Virus record (IMG/VR): IMGVR_UViG_3300033067_000713
Coordinates: 1-64,000 of that record
Length of the DNA stretch: 64,000 nucleotides
Reading direction: 5' to 3' (one strand)
Source: a virus
Shown here in pieces: positions 1,749-28,880 of the stretch (the stretch's first letter is position 1; the number at the start of each line of letters is the position of its first letter). The notes beneath the pieces are model-generated. The model was not told where the DNA came from. It made no database searches and saw only the letters and a list, made by a program, of their open reading frames with translations. The position numbers and the translations under genes were made by a program.

Positions 1749-2186
1749 CATAGGGGTAGCTGGGAATGACCTGGAAGAACTATTTATTAATAAGCATGTA
1801 ATGAGATGGTAACTATCATTTAAATCTATGTTATCAAGTCTTAACTGACAAATGTGTAATAACCAACGAAGTAGGTACTGCTGAAGATGTACTTGCTGTT
1901 GTAAAAAGAGCTAACTCAGCAAAAGTTGTGAATTTATTCACTTCACCTGTTTCTAAAACAGAATTGGCAGTAGCAGCCTAATAATTTAGAAAGTTTAGAG
2001 TATTGTACTTAACAATCTGTTGTATTTTGTTATTTTGAGCTATGGTATTGCCAAAAAATAACTATTTTGTATTAAAAGAAAATAATACTAAACATGTAGA
2101 AAATTAATAATAGCTTACAGGATACGGCGGTTCAACTCCGCCCTACTCCACAATATTTTCTTATTTTTTTTATAAAAATAAGTGAT

Positions 2187-2258
2187 TAGGTATAAGTTTG
2201 TATAGAGGAACAGCACACTGATAAAGTGCAGGTGTTGGTGCAAGTCCAACATACCTAA
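2187..2258 (+). tRNA. atypical tRNA, anticodon GAT (Ile) by best fold
   Basis: Perfect 7-bp acceptor TAGGTAT/ATACCTA. D stem GTTT/GAAC. Anticodon stem GCAC(A)/(A)GTGC with loop CTGATAA. T stem GTTGG/CCAAC with a non-canonical T loop TGCAAGT. Discriminator A. There is one mismatch in the anticodon stem and the T loop is unusual, so confidence is moderate. Confidence 0.4.
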
Positions 2259-2598
2259 CAAATTACAATTATTCCTAGATATAGGTGAGCAATAATCATT
2301 CAAAGAGAAAATGCATGAAAGTGATTATATCATGTACAGATATGTAAAAAGCTACTCTAATAATTGTAATCTCTAAATCCTAAAGTAACTTTTGTGATAT
2401 TAGGTAGTTTTCTTTGTTATCTTATAAACAAAGTGGTGGACATGTAAACCAGTGGTTATGTGGCTCATAAGTAGTAGGTTTGAAAGTAAAACTTGAGATA
2501 TAACAGGTTACTTCCTACTACTTATTTAAATGAAATATTATCAACATAATATATAAATACTACGTTTGGTTTGTGTGTAGTGTGTAGTGTGGTTAGTT

Positions 2599-2632
2599 AA
2601 AGAGAGGATTAATTTCCTCTCTTTTTCTTTTT
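2599..2632 (+). terminator. rho-independent terminator after the tRNA region
   Basis: Stem AGAGAGGA (2601-2608), loop TTAATT, stem TCCTCTCT (2615-2622), followed by TTTTCTTTTT. Confidence 0.6.
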
Positions 2633-2662
2633 AATTAATTAATAATAAAATAAATAAAATTT

Positions 2663-2884
2663 ATGAGTACTTTTTTAATAGCAATAACTATTTGGTTATT
2701 AGTTAGTTTAACAAACATTATTATCTTCAGGAAACAAATATTTTTAAAAGAATTAACATTAGTAAACAAAATAACTGGTATCTTTGTAATCTTGGTTTTA
2801 GGACCAATTTTTATACCTATATTTTTATTAATTATTAAATCAATACAAAATATACACTTTGAAGATGAAGAACATCTAAAGTAA
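2663..2884 (+). CDS. small membrane protein (two predicted transmembrane helices)
   Basis: ORF of 73 aa with two long hydrophobic stretches (IAITIWLLVSL and GIFVILVLGPIFIPIFLLII). It starts just after a terminator. Confidence 0.35.
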   Translation: MSTFLIAITIWLLVSLTNIIIFRKQIFLKELTLVNKITGIFVILVLGPIFIPIFLLIIKSIQNIHFEDEEHLK

Positions 2885-3031
2885 TTTAACTTTGATACAG
2901 AATTATAGTTTTTAAATAAAAATTAAACCTATTGTGGCGGTGGGAATCCGCCCTTTAGATGTTTATTAAAATATGAATGATTAATAGATTATATATAATT
3001 GTATTCCCAGATACAATAAAAACAAAACAAA

Positions 3032-3376
3032 ATGAAGTTTAAAGTAGGTGATTTAATTACTGGAACAGATAAAGCTTTAAGTAATTTTCAAGATATTGAT
3101 TTATCTGATCAAGCTGTTTTAGAAGTAACAGAAGTTGATGATGATGAATATTATTGTATAATTATTTCTAACCAAATTGATGATTCTAATGTAGGAGAAA
3201 CTGTTACGTTTTATGACTCTGATGAAAGATTCTTTGTTCATATAACACCAGAAGTATCTACTAAATATCATGTAGATTTAGGTACTTTTTCAGTAAATGA
3301 ATTTAAAAAACATCAAGAAAATACTAGTTCAGGATTATCTAGAGCTAAACTCTTAAAGGCTAAGGGTTTATTATAA
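3032..3376 (+). CDS. hypothetical protein
   Basis: Acidic ORF of 114 aa. Confidence 0.5.
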   Translation: MKFKVGDLITGTDKALSNFQDIDLSDQAVLEVTEVDDDEYYCIIISNQIDDSNVGETVTFYDSDERFFVHITPEVSTKYHVDLGTFSVNEFKKHQENTSSGLSRAKLLKAKGLL

Positions 3377-3412
3377 AATAATCTAAATTTTTAACAAAAC
3401 AAAATACAAAAA

Positions 3413-3691
3413 ATGGCAACATTATTAGAATTAGCAACAGCAGAATTAGGTAAAACACCAGAACAAAAAGCATTAGCTGCTTTATCAGAAAAAGTAGAAG
3501 ATAATAAAGTAGCATTTATTACTGATTTACATCATGCAAAGAAAGCAGTTAGTGCTGCTGAAAAAGTAGTCAATTATTTAGCTTCAAATCCAAGTGCATC
3601 TGCACGTCAAATTATTGATGCTGATGATGATTTTGCTGTAGCTAAAAAAGAAGTAGAGCAGATTAATGCTATTATGGCATCAAGATTCTAA
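3413..3691 (+). CDS. hypothetical small acidic, Ala-rich all-helical protein
   Basis: ORF of 92 aa. Its Ala/Glu/Lys-rich composition is atypical for this genome. Confidence 0.5.
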   Translation: MATLLELATAELGKTPEQKALAALSEKVEDNKVAFITDLHHAKKAVSAAEKVVNYLASNPSASARQIIDADDDFAVAKKEVEQINAIMASRF

Positions 3692-3740
3692 TTATTTAAA
3701 TATATAAATGGCGGAGTTAATAGCTCCGCCTATTTCTATT

Positions 3741-3980
3741 ATGAAAGAAAGAATTAAACAACTTATTATATCTAGATTAAATAGTACAGGATTAAATATT
3801 ATAGATTATCTTATAATTTATATATATTATAAAACAATGAAAGATGTTAAAATTACTTTAACACCAAATGATTTTCATAAACATTTAGATTTTTTAACTT
3901 ATAATGAACAATATGTAAAACAAGAATTTGAAATAAATTTATTATCTGATAAATATGGTCAACCTATATTATATTTATAA
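3741..3980 (+). CDS. hypothetical protein (the track ORF starts at 3708; the start is more likely the ATG at 3741)
   Basis: The 3708 ATG lies inside a GC-rich hairpin (GGCGGAG-TTAATAG-CTCCGCC, 3710-3730) that looks like the terminator of the upstream gene. The next in-frame ATG at 3741 is followed by MKERIKQL. Confidence 0.45.
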   Translation: MKERIKQLIISRLNSTGLNIIDYLIIYIYYKTMKDVKITLTPNDFHKHLDFLTYNEQYVKQEFEINLLSDKYGQPILYL

Positions 3981-4008
3981 TGATTTATTTTTTTTAACTT
4001 TCTTTTAA

Positions 4009-5919
4009 ATGATATACACAATAGGATGTCCTAGATTAATTACTACACAACAGTTTACAGAAGTAACAGTTGCATATTGTTTAGATTATTTTAAAAATCA
4101 TAAAAGTGTTCAATTAGATACTGAAACAAAAGGTAAAGATCCACATACTAAAAAGATATTAAGTTTACAACTAGGAGATTCTGATAATCAATTTGTAATT
4201 GATGTTAGAAGAATAAACATATTATTATTTAAAGAATTAATAGAAAGTAAAATAATTATAGGTCATAATTTAAAGTTTGATTATAAATTTTTAAAGAAAG
4301 CTGGTATAGTATTAAACAACTGTTGGGATACAATGCTTGCAGAATGTGTATTATATTGTGGTTATGAAAAATATGGATATGGCTTAGCTGCTGTAGCTCA
4401 AAGATATTTAAATATTACATTAGATAAATCTGTTAGAGGAGAATTTTTTAAATTAATAGATGAGCCTTTTAATGATGACCAAATATTATATGCTTCTAAA
4501 GATGTTAAATATTTAAATTTAATAGCTGAAAAACAATATCATAAGATTATAGAATTAGATTTATTATATTGTATTAATCTTGAAAATGAAGTATTAAAAG
4601 CTTTAGGAGATATAGAATATAATGGTATGATACTTAATAAAGAAAAATGGTTAGCTAATACTAATAAATTTAAAGAAGAGTTAGAAATAATAACTCAAAC
4701 TTTAGATAATATTGTAGAATCTGAACCTAAATTAAGTAAATATATTCCTAAATATATACAAAGTAATTTATTTGATTTTGAAGAAAGAAAATTAAAAATA
4801 AATTATTCTTCACCTTTACAAATTTATAAAATATGTAAAGATTTAGGATTTAATCCAGAATCTACTAATGATAGAGAATTAACTAAATTAGTTGATAAAC
4901 ATAAATTTTTTACTGTTTTACAAGATTATAGAGAAAAAGCTAAAATTATAAGTACTTATGGTGAAGGATTTTTAGAATATATTAATAAAACTACAGGAAA
5001 GGTTCATACATCTTTTTGGCAAGTATTAAATACAGGAAGAGTATCATCTGGTTCTAAAGATGATAATGCTCCTAATTTACAAAATATACCTGCTAAAAAT
5101 ATATTTAGAAATTGTTTTGAAGCTAGACCAAGATTTTTATGGGTTTCTATAGATTATAGTGGTCAAGAATTAAATTTAATGGCTGATGGTTCAGGAGAAG
5201 AAGGTTTTATAGATGTATTAAATAGAGGAGAAGATCTTCATTGTTATGCTGGTAGTATGATGTTTAAGAAAACTATTACTAAAGCTGATAAAGATTTAAG
5301 AAATAAAGCTAAAACTATTAATTTTGGTAAACCTTATGGAATGGGACCACCTAAATTAGCTGATACATTAAGTATTAGTATAGAAGAATCTGAACAATTA
5401 TTTAAAGAATATGCTGAAGCTTTTCCTAAATTAAATAAATGGTTGGAAAAACAAAGTAAATTTGCTAAAGAAAAAGGTTATTCAATGACTTTTGCTCCTT
5501 GTAAAAGAAAAAGATTTTATCCAGAAATAAATAAAGCTAAAGAATTAAGAGAAAAAGCTTCTAATTATATTAAAGGTTCTCCAGAATCTAAAGAATTATG
5601 GAAAGAAATATTTAAAATAGAAGGTCAAACTGAAAGAAATGGTGGTAATCAACCAATACAAGGTTCTGGTGCTGATATTACTAAAGAAGCTTTAGTAGAA
5701 GTTAGAAAACTTATTATAGAATATAATAAAGAATATAAAGAAGAAGTAGCATTTTTAATTTGTACTGTTCATGATGCTATTGATGTAGAAGTTAGAGAAG
5801 ATTTAGCTTTAGAATTTTCTAAGGAAATGGAACAAATAATGATAAATTGTGGTAATAAATATGTATCTAAAGTACAAATGAAAGTGGATACTACTATTAC
5901 TAAAGAGTGGATGAAATAG
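4009..5919 (+). CDS. DNA polymerase, family A (PolA-type) with 3'-5' proofreading exonuclease
   Basis: Exo I motif DTETKG and Exo III-like YASKD in the N-terminal part. Pol motif A DYSGQELNLMA, motif B RNKAKTINFGKPYGMG and motif C VHDAI. Confidence 0.85.
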   Translation: MIYTIGCPRLITTQQFTEVTVAYCLDYFKNHKSVQLDTETKGKDPHTKKILSLQLGDSDNQFVIDVRRINILLFKELIESKIIIGHNLKFDYKFLKKAGIVLNNCWDTMLAECVLYCGYEKYGYGLAAVAQRYLNITLDKSVRGEFFKLIDEPFNDDQILYASKDVKYLNLIAEKQYHKIIELDLLYCINLENEVLKALGDIEYNGMILNKEKWLANTNKFKEELEIITQTLDNIVESEPKLSKYIPKYIQSNLFDFEERKLKINYSSPLQIYKICKDLGFNPESTNDRELTKLVDKHKFFTVLQDYREKAKIISTYGEGFLEYINKTTGKVHTSFWQVLNTGRVSSGSKDDNAPNLQNIPAKNIFRNCFEARPRFLWVSIDYSGQELNLMADGSGEEGFIDVLNRGEDLHCYAGSMMFKKTITKADKDLRNKAKTINFGKPYGMGPPKLADTLSISIEESEQLFKEYAEAFPKLNKWLEKQSKFAKEKGYSMTFAPCKRKRFYPEINKAKELREKASNYIKGSPESKELWKEIFKIEGQTERNGGNQPIQGSGADITKEALVEVRKLIIEYNKEYKEEVAFLICTVHDAIDVEVREDLALEFSKEMEQIMINCGNKYVSKVQMKVDTTITKEWMK

Positions 5920-5935
5920 TTTAAAAATAATTATT

Positions 5936-6178
5936 ATGGAAAAAACAATTAAAAAAGTAGCACATATTTCAGATGAAAAATTATCTATAATGTTAAAATT
6001 TGTTACAGATAAACATCCTGAAGCTAAAAATAACTTTATGTTATTATCTTTAAAAATTCAAGAAAATTTTAATACATATTGTCCTTGTGGAAGAATAGAG
6101 GAATATATAGCTAAAATTTCTTTTATTGAAGATTTTGAATTAGAAGGAAGGAAAATAGAATATGGTCATAGAATGTAA
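5936..6178 (+). CDS. hypothetical protein
   Basis: ORF of 80 aa containing a C-x-C pair. Confidence 0.45.
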   Translation: MEKTIKKVAHISDEKLSIMLKFVTDKHPEAKNNFMLLSLKIQENFNTYCPCGRIEEYIAKISFIEDFELEGRKIEYGHRM

Positions 6179-6725
6179 TATTGATGAGTTAAATAAAGTA
6201 GGATTATCTCCTACTACTTATTGTTATCTTTATTATCTTTTTAAGAAACAAGTATATCCATTTGCAACTAGTATTCCAATATCTGTTATAAATAGTTTAG
6301 TTAAAGATGAATGGTTAATCAATCAAGAAGAACCAATTATAACTGAGAAATTTAGATTATTTATAGGAGAAAGAGAAAATACTAAAGATGTTAGTAAATG
6401 GATAGATGAATATAATCAATTATTTCCTACTGGTATTAGTAATGGTGGAAGACCTATAAGATCTAGTAGAACTAATTGTATTAAGAAAATGAATGCTTTT
6501 ATTAATGAGCATAAAAAGATTACTAAAGAAGATATAATTGAAGCAACTACTATTTATTTAAGAAAAAAAGCAAAAGAAAATTATGCTTATACAGTTAGTT
6601 CTGATTATTTTATATCTAAAGATGGTAATTCTTTATTATTATCTATAATAGAAGATAGTTCTGCAAGAGAATCTTACAGACAAAATAAAGAAGCAGGTGG
6701 AAGTGTTTTTCATAAACAAGTATAA
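6162..6725 (+). CDS. hypothetical protein
   Basis: ORF of 187 aa. Its stop overlaps the next start in a TAATG arrangement. Confidence 0.5.
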   Translation: MVIECNIDELNKVGLSPTTYCYLYYLFKKQVYPFATSIPISVINSLVKDEWLINQEEPIITEKFRLFIGERENTKDVSKWIDEYNQLFPTGISNGGRPIRSSRTNCIKKMNAFINEHKKITKEDIIEATTIYLRKKAKENYAYTVSSDYFISKDGNSLLLSIIEDSSARESYRQNKEAGGSVFHKQV

Positions 6726-6889
6726 TGAGTGAAGAAATAGTAAAAAGTAATAAGTTTGATAGTATTTTAAAATCAATTGATAACGGTAGAGCAGGTAATA
6801 ATAAAGGGATTCCAATATCATTTAACAGACTTAGACAATTTTTACCTAATATTCAGCAGAGTACATATTACTTATGCGGAGCGGGTACT
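6725..6889 (+). CDS. DnaB-family replicative helicase, exon 1 (N-terminal part up to the first half of Walker A)
   Basis: The translation ...KGIPISFNRLRQFLPNIQQSTYYLCGAGT aligns with the DnaB segment GVxTGFxxLDxxTxGLQPSDLIIVAARP that immediately precedes the P-loop. The reading frame runs into a stop at 6896 unless it is spliced. The 3' boundary is inferred. Confidence 0.5.
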
Positions 6890-6947
6890 AAGATTTAAAA
6901 ACAAAAAAGTATTTTATTTTGTGTTTGCTTTATTCAAATAATATTAT

Positions 6948-6955
6948 TATCTTTG
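6948..6955 (+). promoter_or_regulatory. Bacteroidota-type -7-like element TATCTTTG upstream of the GIY-YIG endonuclease gene
   Basis: TAnnTTTG consensus about 15 nt upstream of the ATG at 6970. The same TATCTTTGT word is reused upstream of the LAGLIDADG gene. Confidence 0.35.
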
Positions 6956-6969
6956 TATAAAATAATATT

Positions 6970-7794
6970 ATGAAATTAAGGCAAACTTGGAATAAAAAAA
7001 TAGGTATTTATTGTATAAAAAATAGTATTACAAATAAAAATTATGTTGGAAGTTCTATAAATATACTTGGAAGATTATATAAACATAGAGCTTTATTAAG
7101 ACATAACAAACATCAAAATAGTTATTTACAAAATTCTTGGAATAAATATAGTGAAGAATATTTTACTTGTTTTATTTTAGAAATTTGTAATATTGATGAA
7201 TTAATTGTAAAAGAACAATTTTGGATTGATAAATTAGGAGATTATAATTTAACTAAAGAAGTTATAAGATTAAAGTTATCAGATGAATCTAAACAAAAAA
7301 TGTCTTTTACAAGAAAAAATAAAATTGCATCTGGTGAAATACCTAAGTATGGAAGTAAAAAAATTAAAAAATATTTAAAAAATGGTGAATTTATTAAAGA
7401 ATACAATTCTATAACTGATGCTAGTAATGATAGTAATATTTCTACTTGTCAAATAAGTAGAGTATTAAAAAAAAGACATATTACAGCAGGAGGTTATCAA
7501 TGGAAATATTCAACTGATAATTCAGAAATTAAAATTTATAATGGTAGAGATCATAAAAAAGAAGCTTTAAAACGTAGAAAAGCTTTATTAGTTTTAGATA
7601 CTTATACTGGTATTTATTATAATTTTAATTCTTATAAAGAAACAGAACAATTTTTTAATGTAAAATTTCAAACAATATCAAGAGCAATTAAAAATACTAG
7701 AAATTTATACAAAAATAGATATTTAATACAACCAGATCTTATAAAACAGGAAGAATTGCTGGAAACTCCTAAAGCTTTATTAACTACAACATAA
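6970..7794 (+). CDS. GIY-YIG homing endonuclease (Seg/I-TevI-like) with a C-terminal NUMOD/IENR-type DNA-binding region
   Basis: N-terminal GIYCIKN...YVGSS...R...H...N motif set. C-terminal region ...ISTCQISRVLKKRHITAGGYQWKYS. A TATCTTTG -7-like motif (6948-6955) precedes it. Confidence 0.85.
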   Translation: MKLRQTWNKKIGIYCIKNSITNKNYVGSSINILGRLYKHRALLRHNKHQNSYLQNSWNKYSEEYFTCFILEICNIDELIVKEQFWIDKLGDYNLTKEVIRLKLSDESKQKMSFTRKNKIASGEIPKYGSKKIKKYLKNGEFIKEYNSITDASNDSNISTCQISRVLKKRHITAGGYQWKYSTDNSEIKIYNGRDHKKEALKRRKALLVLDTYTGIYYNFNSYKETEQFFNVKFQTISRAIKNTRNLYKNRYLIQPDLIKQEELLETPKALLTTT

Positions 7795-8018
7795 TCTGTA
7801 AAGATAAGTGTGAATGTTTGAAAATAATAAAGATGGCTAATGGACAATCAGCAGCCGAGCATCTTAGGAATGAGATGAAGGTTCAACGACTAATAGCATA
7901 CTACCAGAACGGTAATGAAGCTAACACGAGCATCCTGCACTAGAAATAGTGATGATATAGTCTAATCTATATGGAAACACATAGAATACTAAGATAAATA
8001 GCTTAGTAGTTAATATAA

Positions 8019-8990
8019 ATGGGAAAGACAAGTTTTGTTGATGATGTATTTCTTTATGGTTCTTTAGATTATATTTTATCTAATCCTGATAGTAATATTG
8101 AATTAGATATAGATTATTTTTCTTTTGAGATAGATAGTAAAACTAAATTAGTTAAAGGTGTAGCAAGAAGATTATGGCATGACTATAATATTATTGCTGA
8201 TGTAAACACTATTTTATCTAAAGGTGAACATTATTGTTCAGATGAATTATATAATATAGTTAAAGGTTATAGAAATTATTTTGAAAAAATAGAAGATTAT
8301 TTAACTGTTCATGATATGACTGATAATGCTACAGGTATTAATAAATATTTAATAGAAAAAGCTAAGAAAAGAGGTACTATTGAATTTAAAAATATTAATA
8401 AAGATCCTGAAGGTGAACCTATTATGAGATTTGATAAATATACTCCTAATAAAGATAATGTTTATTGGCTTATAATTATTGATCATATTGCATTATTAAG
8501 AGAAGAAAGAGGTTTTAATACTAAACAAAATATTGATAAAATGAGTCAGTATTTAGTAAGTATGAGAAATAATTTTGGTGCTACTCCTGTAGTTATACAA
8601 CAATTAACTTTTGATACTGATAATGATGAAAGATTTAAATCTAATAGATTAACACCTACTTTAAAAGATTTTGGAGATTCTAAATATACTACTAGAGATG
8701 CTAATGTTATTATGACTTTATATTCGCCATATAGACATGGTATAACACAATTTGAAGGTTATGATATTACAAAATTAGGTAATAAGTTTAGAAATTTAGA
8801 AATACTTGAAAACAGAGATGGTGAACCTAATGTAAATATTGGATTAAATTTTATAGATAAAGTAGGAACTTTTAGAGAATTACCTAAACCTAAAGATATG
8901 ACTCCTGAATCTTATAAATATGCATTTGATATGGAAAATAGAAAATCTTCTTATTTTAAAAATGAAAGTGGAGTATGGATAGAGAGATAG
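8019..8990 (+). CDS. DnaB-family replicative helicase, exon 2 (RecA-like ATPase domain from the second half of Walker A)
   Basis: It starts with MGKTSFV (DnaB has SMGKTAF). Walker B-like LIIIDHIALL, H3-like VVIQQLTFD and H4-like RDANVIMTLYSP match DnaB/T7 gp4 motifs. Confidence 0.75.
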   Translation: MGKTSFVDDVFLYGSLDYILSNPDSNIELDIDYFSFEIDSKTKLVKGVARRLWHDYNIIADVNTILSKGEHYCSDELYNIVKGYRNYFEKIEDYLTVHDMTDNATGINKYLIEKAKKRGTIEFKNINKDPEGEPIMRFDKYTPNKDNVYWLIIIDHIALLREERGFNTKQNIDKMSQYLVSMRNNFGATPVVIQQLTFDTDNDERFKSNRLTPTLKDFGDSKYTTRDANVIMTLYSPYRHGITQFEGYDITKLGNKFRNLEILENRDGEPNVNIGLNFIDKVGTFRELPKPKDMTPESYKYAFDMENRKSSYFKNESGVWIER

Positions 8991-9280
8991 GTAAAAAATA
9001 TGATGATGGAAAGATAGATTATAATTTAATACCTGTATTTGCTCTTGAAGGCATTGCAAAAGTATTAACTTATGGATCTATGAAATATGGACCTAATAAT
9101 TGGCAAGCTGTAAGACCTAAAGAAAGATATATAAGTGCTGCTTATAGACATTTAGAAGCTGTTAGAAAAGGTGAACACATAGACACTATAGAATCTGGTG
9201 GAAGTGGATTATTACATATAGATCATGCTATATGTAGTTTAATTATGTATAGAGAAATAACAAGAACAGAAAATGAGTAA
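8975..9280 (+). CDS. possible phage dATP/dGTP diphosphohydrolase N-domain-like protein
   Basis: The KYDDGKIDYNLIP...VLTYGSMKYGPNNW pattern resembles my recollection of the phage dATP/dGTP diphosphohydrolase N-terminal family. This is from memory only. Confidence 0.35.
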   Translation: MDREIGKKYDDGKIDYNLIPVFALEGIAKVLTYGSMKYGPNNWQAVRPKERYISAAYRHLEAVRKGEHIDTIESGGSGLLHIDHAICSLIMYREITRTENE

Positions 9281-9551
9281 TTTTATTAAATTAAATGATG
9301 AATTAACATCATTATTAGAGATAAGTAATGATGTTAAAGAAGAATTAAAAATAGCTAAACCTAAATTAATTGATATTAATAACAAACTTGAATTTATTAA
9401 ACAAGAAATACAAATTTGTAAAGATAAAGGTGATTTAGATGAAGGTGAATTTTTACAACAAAAAGGAGATGTAATTAATAGTATTAATCTTGAAATACAA
9501 GATAATAAGTTATTAATGGTTAAAATTGATACAATTTTAAAAGAACAATAA
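9273..9551 (+). CDS. hypothetical coiled-coil protein
   Basis: ORF of 92 aa that is rich in Glu, Lys and Leu. Confidence 0.45.
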   Translation: MSNFIKLNDELTSLLEISNDVKEELKIAKPKLIDINNKLEFIKQEIQICKDKGDLDEGEFLQQKGDVINSINLEIQDNKLLMVKIDTILKEQ

Positions 9552-10342
9552 TGTTACCAGAAATAAGAAAAGCAAGTGATAAGAAAGATCCAGCAGTATT
9601 TATATTATATGGACCACCTAAAGTAGGTAAAACTACTCTAATTAATTCATTAGATAATAATCTAATATTTGATTTAGAAGAAGGTACTAAATATTTAAAT
9701 GCTTTGAGTATCAATATAATTGGTATTAAAGCTCCTGCAAATGAATCTAATGAGTCTAAAGAAGAAAGATTAAGAAATAATAAATATTATTTAGCAGAAG
9801 CTGGTAGAGAAATAGTAGAAAAGAAATTAAAATATGATTTTATAACAATAGATACTGCTACAGAATTTGAAGAAATGTTAAAACCAATTGCTCTTGAACT
9901 TTATAAAGCTACACCTATGGGTGCAACTTTTACAGGTACAGATATTTTGGATTTAGCTAGAGGAGCAGGTTATTATTATATTAGAGAAGCATATAAAGAA
10001 TATATAGGAAAAATTAAAAAATTAACACCTAGATTAATATTAATAGGTCATTTAAAAGAGAATATAATCAATAAAGCAGGTAAAGAAGTAACAGCAAAAG
10101 ATTTAGATTTAACAGGTAAACTTAAAACTATAGCTTGTGCTGGAGCTGATGCGGTTGGTTATATTTATAGAGGTGAAGATTCTGAGTTAAGAATCAGTTT
10201 TAAAACATCTGATGAAGTAACTTGTGGAGCTAGACCTGATCATTTAAAAGGTCAAGATATTAAAATAGCCGATTATAATAAAGAAACAAATGATTTGGAA
10301 AATATTAATTGGTCATTAATATATCCAGAAATGTTTAGTTAA
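9551..10342 (+). CDS. P-loop ATPase (AAA_24 / Sak4-like phage ATPase)
   Basis: Walker A ILYGPPKVGKTT and Walker B-like FITIDTATE in a protein of about 260 aa, which is typical for this phage ATPase family. Confidence 0.6.
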   Translation: MLPEIRKASDKKDPAVFILYGPPKVGKTTLINSLDNNLIFDLEEGTKYLNALSINIIGIKAPANESNESKEERLRNNKYYLAEAGREIVEKKLKYDFITIDTATEFEEMLKPIALELYKATPMGATFTGTDILDLARGAGYYYIREAYKEYIGKIKKLTPRLILIGHLKENIINKAGKEVTAKDLDLTGKLKTIACAGADAVGYIYRGEDSELRISFKTSDEVTCGARPDHLKGQDIKIADYNKETNDLENINWSLIYPEMFS

Positions 10343-28713: not shown

Positions 28714-28786
28714 GTACTTATATCTTAATTGGTAAAGAACTATGCTCATAACATAGGATATTTAGGTTCAAGTCCTAATAAGTACA
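28714..28786 (+). tRNA. tRNA-Met(CAT) (or Ile2 if lysidinylated)
   Basis: Manual cloverleaf. Acceptor GTACTTA/TAAGTAC. D arm TCTT-AATTGGTA-AAGA. Anticodon stem CTATG/CATAG with loop CTCATAA (anticodon CAT). T arm TTAGG-TTCAAGT-CCTAA. Discriminator A. Confidence 0.7.
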
Positions 28787-28880
28787 CTAAAAATAAATAA
28801 AATGGGAAGAATATTAGTAATTTAACATTTTGTATTAGTAATATTACATGGAACATAGTATATTTGTATAAAATATAATT

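Follow-up and report, generated by a model that had tools for sequence, protein, structure and literature searches.

A mobile group I intron with a GIY-YIG endonuclease gene predicted to interrupt the helicase P-loop codons of a crAss-like phage

Group I introns with GIY-YIG endonucleases have been known in phage replication genes since T4, and the mechanism discussed here is not new. In the T4 td intron with its endonuclease I-TevI, as in the nrdB and nrdD introns, a group I intron sits at a conserved catalytic site in a gene of DNA metabolism. In the T4 introns, peripheral helices (P6a in the case of td) accommodate the open reading frames (ORFs) in their loops; P1 forms a short local hairpin, and P2 comes after it. 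Inteins occur in the P-loop of bacterial DnaB helicases, where splicing takes place at the protein level and the endonuclease domains are typically of the LAGLIDADG or HNH type. As a rule homing elements settle in essential genes, at the sequence that is most conserved. ORFs located in P1 are known from nuclear ribosomal DNA group I introns, for example the Physarum intron encoding I-PpoI. For crAss-like phages, self-splicing group I introns with endonuclease ORFs have been described in core genes, and according to the same study such insertions are absent from the previously studied alpha-gamma genomes (Yutin et al. 2021, PMC7886860). Here we present a purely computational analysis of positions 1-64,000 of the IMG/VR virus record IMGVR_UViG_3300033067_000713 (the window, 64,000 nucleotides (nt) with a G+C content of 25%), in which a group I intron divides a DnaB-family helicase gene (6725-8990) within the codons for Walker A. 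An intron in the helicase P-loop was not described in the literature we searched.

At this locus the window has three ORFs on the + strand, namely one of 57 codons (6725-6898), one of 274 codons (6970-7794) and one of 323 codons (8019-8990). We assign them as follows.

6725-6895, + strand: helicase exon 1, 57 codons, ending …LPNIQQSTYYLCGAGTKI; its last base U6895 is the predicted 5' splice-site U
6896-8021, + strand: group I intron, 1126 nt, based on Rfam RF00028, protein alignments, P1 pairing and covariation
6896-6969, + strand: 5' leader of the intron, 74 nt, 12% G+C, upstream of the endonuclease gene
6970-7794, + strand: GIY-YIG homing endonuclease gene, 274 amino acids, with an I-TevI-like N-terminal catalytic domain and a putative NUMOD-like DNA-binding region
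7735-7741, + strand: internal guide sequence GAUCUUA (3' strand of P1), inside the endonuclease ORF and 5 nt before P3
7747-7962, + strand: catalytic core, from the Rfam alignment and a helix check in the window and in the related intron L031 described below
7967-8021, + strand: peripheral 3' elements, i.e. P9, a P9.1-like hairpin and a 3' tail ending in G8021
8022-8990, + strand: helicase exon 2, 322 codons and the stop codon (8988-8990), beginning with GGA AAG ACA for the GKT of Walker A

A preliminary description of the same DNA, made from its letters and a list of ORFs, had proposed that a DnaB-like helicase is split in the Walker A codons by a group I intron encoding a GIY-YIG endonuclease, and this proposal is borne out by RF00028 (56 bits), by the Pfam matches to DnaB_C and GIY-YIG and by the covariation of P1. 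The first ORF, which had been given as 55 amino acids long, in fact comprises 57 codons; it reads …YYLCGAGTKI and stops at TAA 6896-6898, the first triplet of the predicted intron, and its ATG overlaps the stop codon of the upstream gene (TAATG). The ORF at 8019 does begin with MGKTSF and is DnaB-like, as had been stated. Alone it scores 36.9 bits against Pfam DnaB_C (PF03796, cut-off 27 bits), and this rises to 46.7 bits once it is joined to exon 1. An intact Walker A motif [AG]xxxxGK[ST] with DnaB spacing is present only after splicing (GAGTKIGKT). The spliced product of 379 amino acids is 30-34% identical to the 'replicative DNA helicase' genes of the crAss001 type and matches the SPP1 helicase G40P (PDB 3BH0) weakly. 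Since the Pfam scan of the 379-amino-acid protein gave DnaB_C alone, with the N-terminal (primase-interacting) domain of DnaB absent, and since no more than about 45 residues lie ahead of Walker A, which is also the case in other crAss-like helicases, the protein is a DnaB_C-only helicase and not a full-length DnaB.

The alignments with uninterrupted helicases also place the junction. We predict that the 5' splice site follows U6895, that the intron ends with G8021 and that exon 2 starts with G8022 (GAGTKI/GKTSF), which gives the ends expected of a group I intron, a canonical exon U and a terminal guanosine. Only this junction yields an open frame that matches the intronless relatives, and the helicases of crAss001, cr85_1, cr108_1, DAC15 and IAS virus align without a gap solely when exon 1 retains its AAG AUU codons and exon 2 is read from GGA. 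An example across the junction is GAGTKI/GKTSF against SANSKIGKTQ, with K56 and K59 invariant in the five Steigviridae phages. Among the IMG/VR relatives checked (51-68% identity) 31 of 32 are uninterrupted and read …YYLIGAGTKVGKTSFADD… / …LPNIQQSTYYLIGAGTKVGKTSFADD…, with GAGTKVGKTSF standing without a gap against the proposed ligation product. Aligning the joined exons to DnaB-type helicases had been suggested beforehand as a check, and both the crAss-like relatives and G40P are ungapped across U6895/G8022 (AARPSMGKTAF in G40P against GAGTKIGKTSF). The apparent start codon at 8019 would consist of two intron bases (A and U) and the terminal G8021; its equivalent is CUG in L031 and AAG-A in L123, a second related intron, and ahead of Walker A no in-frame start is present in cr112_1 or Kolpuevirus. 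Shifting the 5' site to U6894 or U6896, or the terminal G to G8022 or G8023, was rejected, as it produces a stop codon, one residue too few or too many, or an intron that does not end in G. The earlier concern that the last intron base might be an A disappears with G8021 as the terminal base.

The intron itself was recognized by Rfam RF00028 with 56.0 bits (E 8.6e-14, gathering score 50 bits) on 7696-7984 when the segment 7690-8040 was searched, so that the scan with group I models which the preliminary description had set as a test gave a match above the gathering score. If only 7780-8040 is searched, which cuts off the 5' part of the core, the score is 36 bits; it rises to 56 bits because the core starts inside the endonuclease ORF and not after it. 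The group I elements had originally been placed in a GC-richer segment of about 220 nt. This segment (7795-8021) indeed has a G+C content of 34%, compared to 25% in the window and 21% in the endonuclease ORF, and holds the sole R-like (TCAACGACTA, 7883) and S-like (GATATAGTC, 7954) elements of the 64 kb, but the ribozyme also extends over the 3' end of the ORF from 7735. In a BLASTN search 7740-7895 showed similarity to introns in Staphylococcus, Lactococcus, Flavobacterium, Listeria and other phages, and pattern scans revealed a large intron family in IMG/VR sharing AAACAGGnnGAAUUGCUGG … GAUAUAGUC … GAUAAAGAGC, of which roughly 30 members were found. The helices of the core and of the 3' part are the following.

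7747-7753/7931-7937: P3
7757-7762/7848-7853: P4
7766-7845: P5 with a long extension that contains the stop codon of the ORF (7792-7794)
7854-7882: P6/P6a
7883-7892: J6/7 and the 5' strand of P7
about 7902-7914: P7.1-like hairpin, UACC…GGUA, found by inspection
about 7920-7930: P7.2-like hairpin, GCU…AGC, found by inspection
7938-7951: P8
7958-7962: 3' strand of P7
7967-7984: P9 with a GAAA loop
7987-8008: P9.1-like hairpin with the conserved loop AUAAAUAG, five of its seven pairs compensatory

In the Rfam alignment P7 (GACUA/UAGUC), J8/7, P3, P4 and P6 all fit the consensus, and the P9.1 loop GAUAAAGAGC is also found across the wider intron family. Hairpins between the 5' strand of P7 and the 3' strand of P3 (P7.1/P7.2) are typical of subgroup IA. 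The intron probably belongs to this subgroup, with two small hairpins in the P7.1/P7.2 position as seen by inspection only and with P2 absent.

The guide sequence GAUCUUA pairs in all seven positions with the end of exon 1, UAAGAUU (6889-6895), including a U·G wobble between U6895 and G7735, and no other 7-mer of the intron can pair with the end of the exon with a G facing U6895. The chance expectation for a match this strict is 0.09 per intron and, within 30 nt of P3, 0.0025. If wobble pairs are allowed throughout, 52% of shuffled introns contain a 7-mer able to pair with the exon end, which means that a bare wobble match is not significant; the argument therefore rests on the strict match, on its position next to P3 and on covariation. 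Three introns could be compared.

Window: exon 1 end UAAGAUU, guide GAUCUUA
L031 (IMGVR_UViG_3300033120_000804, endonuclease 64% identical to that of the window): exon end UAAGGUU, guide GACCUUA
L123 (IMGVR_UViG_3300020036_001034, endonuclease 42% identical to that of the window): exon end CGGGGAU, guide GUCCCCG

Each of them has a P1 paired 7/7 in which a U·G marks the splice site, and a guide located 5 nt from P3. Between the three introns five of the seven P1 pairs change on both sides while the U·G is invariant. When the introns were aligned after deletion of their ORFs, 97.8% of the cells in the P1-P9.1 structure were paired and 14 pairs changed on both sides, with compensatory changes in P1, P9 and P9.1; sliding the partners by 1-3 columns lowered the pairing to 29-42%. 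No guide sequence is possible in the leader (6896-6969), where every G precedes U or C so that no P1 with a U·G can form. The sequence AAUCU at about 7795, which would put a U-A pair at the splice site, was also considered as guide and rejected, as it lies in a GUAA hairpin of the P5 extension.

The GIY-YIG endonuclease gene reported between the two helicase halves is likewise supported, with 31.8 bits for Pfam GIY-YIG PF01541 (cut-off 22.6) and matches to the catalytic domain of I-TevI (E 5.9e-9 for PDB 1MK0, about 6e-9 for 1LN0). GIY, YVG, the Arg in GRLYKH and the Glu in KEQFW align with the I-TevI positions in 1MK0 and are invariant in five homologues. For the C-terminal region the matches to PF22083 I-HmuI_NUMOD-like (25.8 bits, cut-off 27) and NUMOD1 (17.1 bits, cut-off 22.8) are both sub-threshold. 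As the guide sequence and P3-P5 lie within the 3' end of the ORF (from 7735), the ORF occupies the loop of P1: its last 20 or so codons overlap the guide and P3-P5, with P3, P4 and the 5' strand of P5 falling within the last 15 or so. In L031 (1946-2944) and L123 (6725 to about 7516) the endonuclease ORF even runs in frame through the core, up to the 3' strand of P7 and into P8, respectively, and the RNA-constrained core is translated there into a conserved tail, …KQ.ELL..PITV.EDNQQPSL…EGSTTNSQIQT…. The promoter-like motif that had been noted for the endonuclease gene is present as a Bacteroidota-type -7-like TAnnTTTG (TATCTTTG) at 6948-6955 in the intron leader, and by eye the motif also precedes the endonuclease ATG in L031, Kolpuevirus and cr112_1, but it is not enriched in the AT-rich window (114 found, 123 expected). 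It hints weakly that the endonuclease may have its own promoter.

Like the T4 td intron, the intron in the window lies in a phage DNA-metabolism gene at a conserved catalytic site, encodes a GIY-YIG endonuclease whose catalytic domain aligns with I-TevI (1MK0), has an in-frame stop almost directly after the 5' splice site and shows hairpins that may be of the P7.1/P7.2 type. It differs from the T4 introns in that the ORF fills the P1 loop, the guide and P3-P5 are coding, P2 is absent and the host gene encodes a helicase. With the inteins of DnaB it shares a selfish splicing element in the Walker A region of a DnaB-family helicase, and such an insertion in Walker A fits the rule on homing targets given above; in contrast to the inteins, it is RNA that would be spliced, and the GIY-YIG endonuclease is a protein of its own. 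The Physarum-type introns also have an endonuclease ORF in a P1 loop or extension upstream of the catalytic core, but they reside in eukaryotic nuclear ribosomal DNA, encode a His-Cys box enzyme and are evolutionarily unrelated. The likeness to the crAss-like introns consists in a group I intron with an endonuclease ORF in a core gene (Yutin et al. 2021, PMC7886860).

A further comparison is with Kolpuevirus 'frurule' (OQ198718), cr112_1 (NC_055881) and cr111_1 (NC_055880). They encode homologous GIY-YIG endonucleases (37-42% identity over the full length), located between two helicase fragments in interrupted loci at 3823-6116 (OQ198718.1), about 3733-5897 (NC_055881.1) and about 1930-4023 (NC_055880.1). 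From manual reading, the helicase is broken at the same P-loop site within 1 nt, and as in the window a U closes the exon, a G closes the intron and the ORF precedes the guide. Exon 1 ends with AAGGU and the intron with UAAG or UAUG, and splicing would restore TKGGKS or QKVGKS. The insertion has phase 0 in Kolpuevirus as in the window, and phase 2, one nucleotide upstream, in cr112_1 and cr111_1. Differences are a far more diverged core and, again from manual reading, a P2 hairpin with a GUAA loop and a short P1 (approximately GCC/GGU); P3, read in the same way, covaries. The sequence ACCU of Kolpuevirus was rejected as guide, as it is the 5' strand of P3 (CACCUG/CAGGUG, covarying to UCCCUG/CAGGGA in cr111_1). 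RF00028 gave no match when the three loci were searched whole; a scan of the core was run for Kolpuevirus alone, and there the insert reaches 42 bits (E 1e-9), which is below the gathering score. In the GenBank records a GIY-YIG or 'homing endonuclease' gene is annotated alongside fragments named 'replicative DNA helicase', and an intron feature is missing. The three loci appear to hold group I introns that the annotation has missed, at the P-loop site also used in the window.

The following model of splicing can be proposed. The primary transcript would consist of exon 1 (6725-6895), the intron (6896-8021) and exon 2 (8022-8990). The guide at 7735-7741 would pair with the last seven bases of exon 1 and expose the U6895·G7735 wobble to the attack of exogenous guanosine. 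Docking of the terminal G8021 would then lead to ligation of the exons as …ACU AAG AUU/GGA AAG ACA…. In the ligated RNA …GGTACTAAGATT would be joined to GGAAAGACAAG, i.e. …GCGGGTACTAAGATT/GGAAAGACAAGTTTT…, and the fused exons would read TATTACTTATGCGGAGCGGGTACTAAGATTGGAAAGACAAGTTTTGTTGATG. This would restore the P-loop GAGTKIGKT and the helicase of 379 amino acids, and on unspliced RNA translation would halt at the TAA that forms the first intron triplet. The endonuclease presumably cuts intronless helicase alleles near the P-loop codons in a mixed infection, and repair would copy the intron into them (homing).

Several points count against this model. No Rfam group I match was obtained when 6000-9500 was searched as one stretch, and the scan of the whole window at gathering thresholds listed tRNAs only, so the match varies with how the region is cut; we attribute the empty searches to the long ORF insert and the speed filters, which hide the intron, and therefore restricted the searches to the core. 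The covariation comes from three sequences only, and the structure was derived from the same sequences. P2 is absent between the guide and P3, which is unusual for phage introns of subgroup IA, and by eye we found no convincing P10 between the guide region and exon 2 (A7734 faces G8022). The P1 loop measures about 840 nt from the splice site to the guide, and with an ORF that overlaps P1 and P3-P5, folding of the ribozyme could be disturbed by ribosomes translating the endonuclease. Weighing both sides, we are highly confident that a helicase gene of a crAss-like phage is split here by a mobile group I intron with a GIY-YIG endonuclease and that the exons would be joined at U6895/G8022.

Some of these features would also fit a decaying intron that no longer splices, with the helicase being a pseudogene and the phage relying on a host or another helicase: P2 and a clear P10 are missing, P1 has a very long loop and Rfam scores the intron only modestly above threshold. 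We regard this as very improbable, given that all elements of the catalytic core are consensus-like, both exons are intact ORFs with conserved motifs and 51-68% identity to intact relatives, the endonuclease ORF is intact including its catalytic residues, and the compensatory changes in P1, P9 and P9.1 point to ongoing selection. It is slightly less probable still that the gene exists in pieces, i.e. that a free-standing endonuclease was inserted, the two halves (57 amino acids, and 323 from the ATG at 8019) are translated separately and reassemble, and the ribozyme is a relic. The NrdA of the Aeromonas phage Aeh1, reportedly split by mobE, offers a precedent; a stop codon of its own closes the ORF of exon 1, an in-frame ATG lies exactly at 8019, and the GenBank annotators took the homologous loci as separate helicase fragments. 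The break would then, however, fall within the P-loop (GAGTKI / GKT) and leave neither piece with a nucleotide-binding loop, the downstream ATG is not conserved in L031, L123, cr112_1 and Kolpuevirus, and an intact core together with a P1 that covaries with the exon is sensible only if splicing is under selection. None of the relatives compared has a stand-alone helicase starting at MGKT, an arrangement that the preliminary description had named as evidence against an intron.

Least probable of all is a real intron with a different junction, either t6889 joined to a8019 (GAGTMGKT) or t6889 joined after G8021 (GAGTGKT), the two possibilities considered originally. The arithmetic of the former, which gives LCGAGTMGKTSF, is correct and GAGTMGKT also fits the generic GxxxxGK[ST], but neither the relatives nor the guide pairing at U6895 allow it as the biological junction, and both junctions shorten the loop compared to every relative. 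With t6889 one or two residues would be lost that all uninterrupted relatives keep, namely a Lys and one more residue before GK[ST], and joining to a8019 would let the intron end in A. Moreover, the guide pairs through U6895 with the G·U located there and not at U6889, and L031 and L123 confirm this register.

The distribution of the intron is patchy. It is present in one of the 32 IMG/VR relatives checked, L031, whose helicase is 57% identical to that of the window and which carries the 64%-identical endonuclease; the nearest helicase relatives of the window lack it. Homologues of the endonuclease at the same helicase site were found in L031, L123, Kolpuevirus, cr112_1 and cr111_1. In L123 (6637-7595) the helicase is 28% identical, and an intron of the same family with the 42%-identical GIY-YIG ORF is inserted at the P-loop one nucleotide upstream of the window site (codon phase 2). 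In the record IMGVR_UViG_3300012533_000071 (about 4733-5814) the helicase, 29% identical, is intact at the P-loop and interrupted near the residues that correspond to positions of about 284-289 of the window's helicase (RDANV region) by about 1.1 kb with an intron core of the same family, which makes it a second intron site in this helicase family. A pattern of the guide-P3-P4 stretch had no match in metagenome contigs and found only the contig of L031 among viral contigs. A search of IMG/VR for close relatives of the endonuclease gave only distant ones, with 46% identity at most over part of the protein.

For annotation, the helicase should be treated as one protein of 379 amino acids after splicing instead of a stub of 57 amino acids and a P-loop-less fragment of 323 amino acids, and the same correction applies to the public records of the cultured Bacteroides phage Kolpuevirus 'frurule', cr112_1 and cr111_1. 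The P-loop of the replicative helicase can be counted as a further homing site for group I introns of crAss-like phages. It is mildly unusual that the ORF lies in the P1 loop and overlaps the ribozyme core, and the locus provides a clean example, backed by covariation, of an endonuclease gene arranged in this way. As the ORF takes up the P1 loop and carries the guide and P3-P5 in its final codons, one might speculate that translation of the endonuclease and folding of the ribozyme exclude each other on each RNA, forming a switch that couples helicase output and replication timing to endonuclease expression, and that the endonuclease lineage has tracked the P-loop site between crAss-like lineages that are far apart, from gut Steigviridae to this phage of 25% G+C, on strongly diverged ribozymes; we consider this combined idea doubtful, if much less so than the explanations dismissed above.

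The helicase is surrounded by co-directional genes of a replication module, as seen from the ORF list and Pfam.

4009-5919: family A DNA polymerase, co-directional module
between the polymerase and the 57-codon ORF: two small ORFs, co-directional module
8975-9280: gene with a dATP/dGTP diphosphohydrolase N-terminal domain (Pfam dGTP_diPhyd_N, E 1e-24)
9551-10342: ORF with the P-loop motif GPPKVGKT; the Steigviridae records annotate a Sak4-like ATPase at this position

Directly downstream of the helicase, the dGTP_diPhyd_N gene shares 8975-8990 with the last helicase codons; in phages this domain has been linked to functions concerning modified bases or nucleotide pools. For both polymerase and helicase the best annotated relatives are crAss-like phages (Steigviridae) with just 30-35% identity, and the replication module as such shows 30-35% identity to Crassvirales genomes. 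By these similarities the source is a divergent crAss-like phage. Genes for tRNA-Arg(TCT) and tRNA-Met(CAT) at 1675-1749 and 28714-28787 were called by Rfam and ARAGORN alike, a third Rfam match (2187-2258, 42.6 bits) had no ARAGORN call, and no suppressor tRNA was seen in the window. The best TBLASTN match of the DNA polymerase, in two pieces, is to the Leptolyngbya phage Lbo-JY46 (PP438436.1, 37018-39930), where a LAGLIDADG endonuclease gene is among the features under the match, which suggests another intron or intein in a related polymerase.

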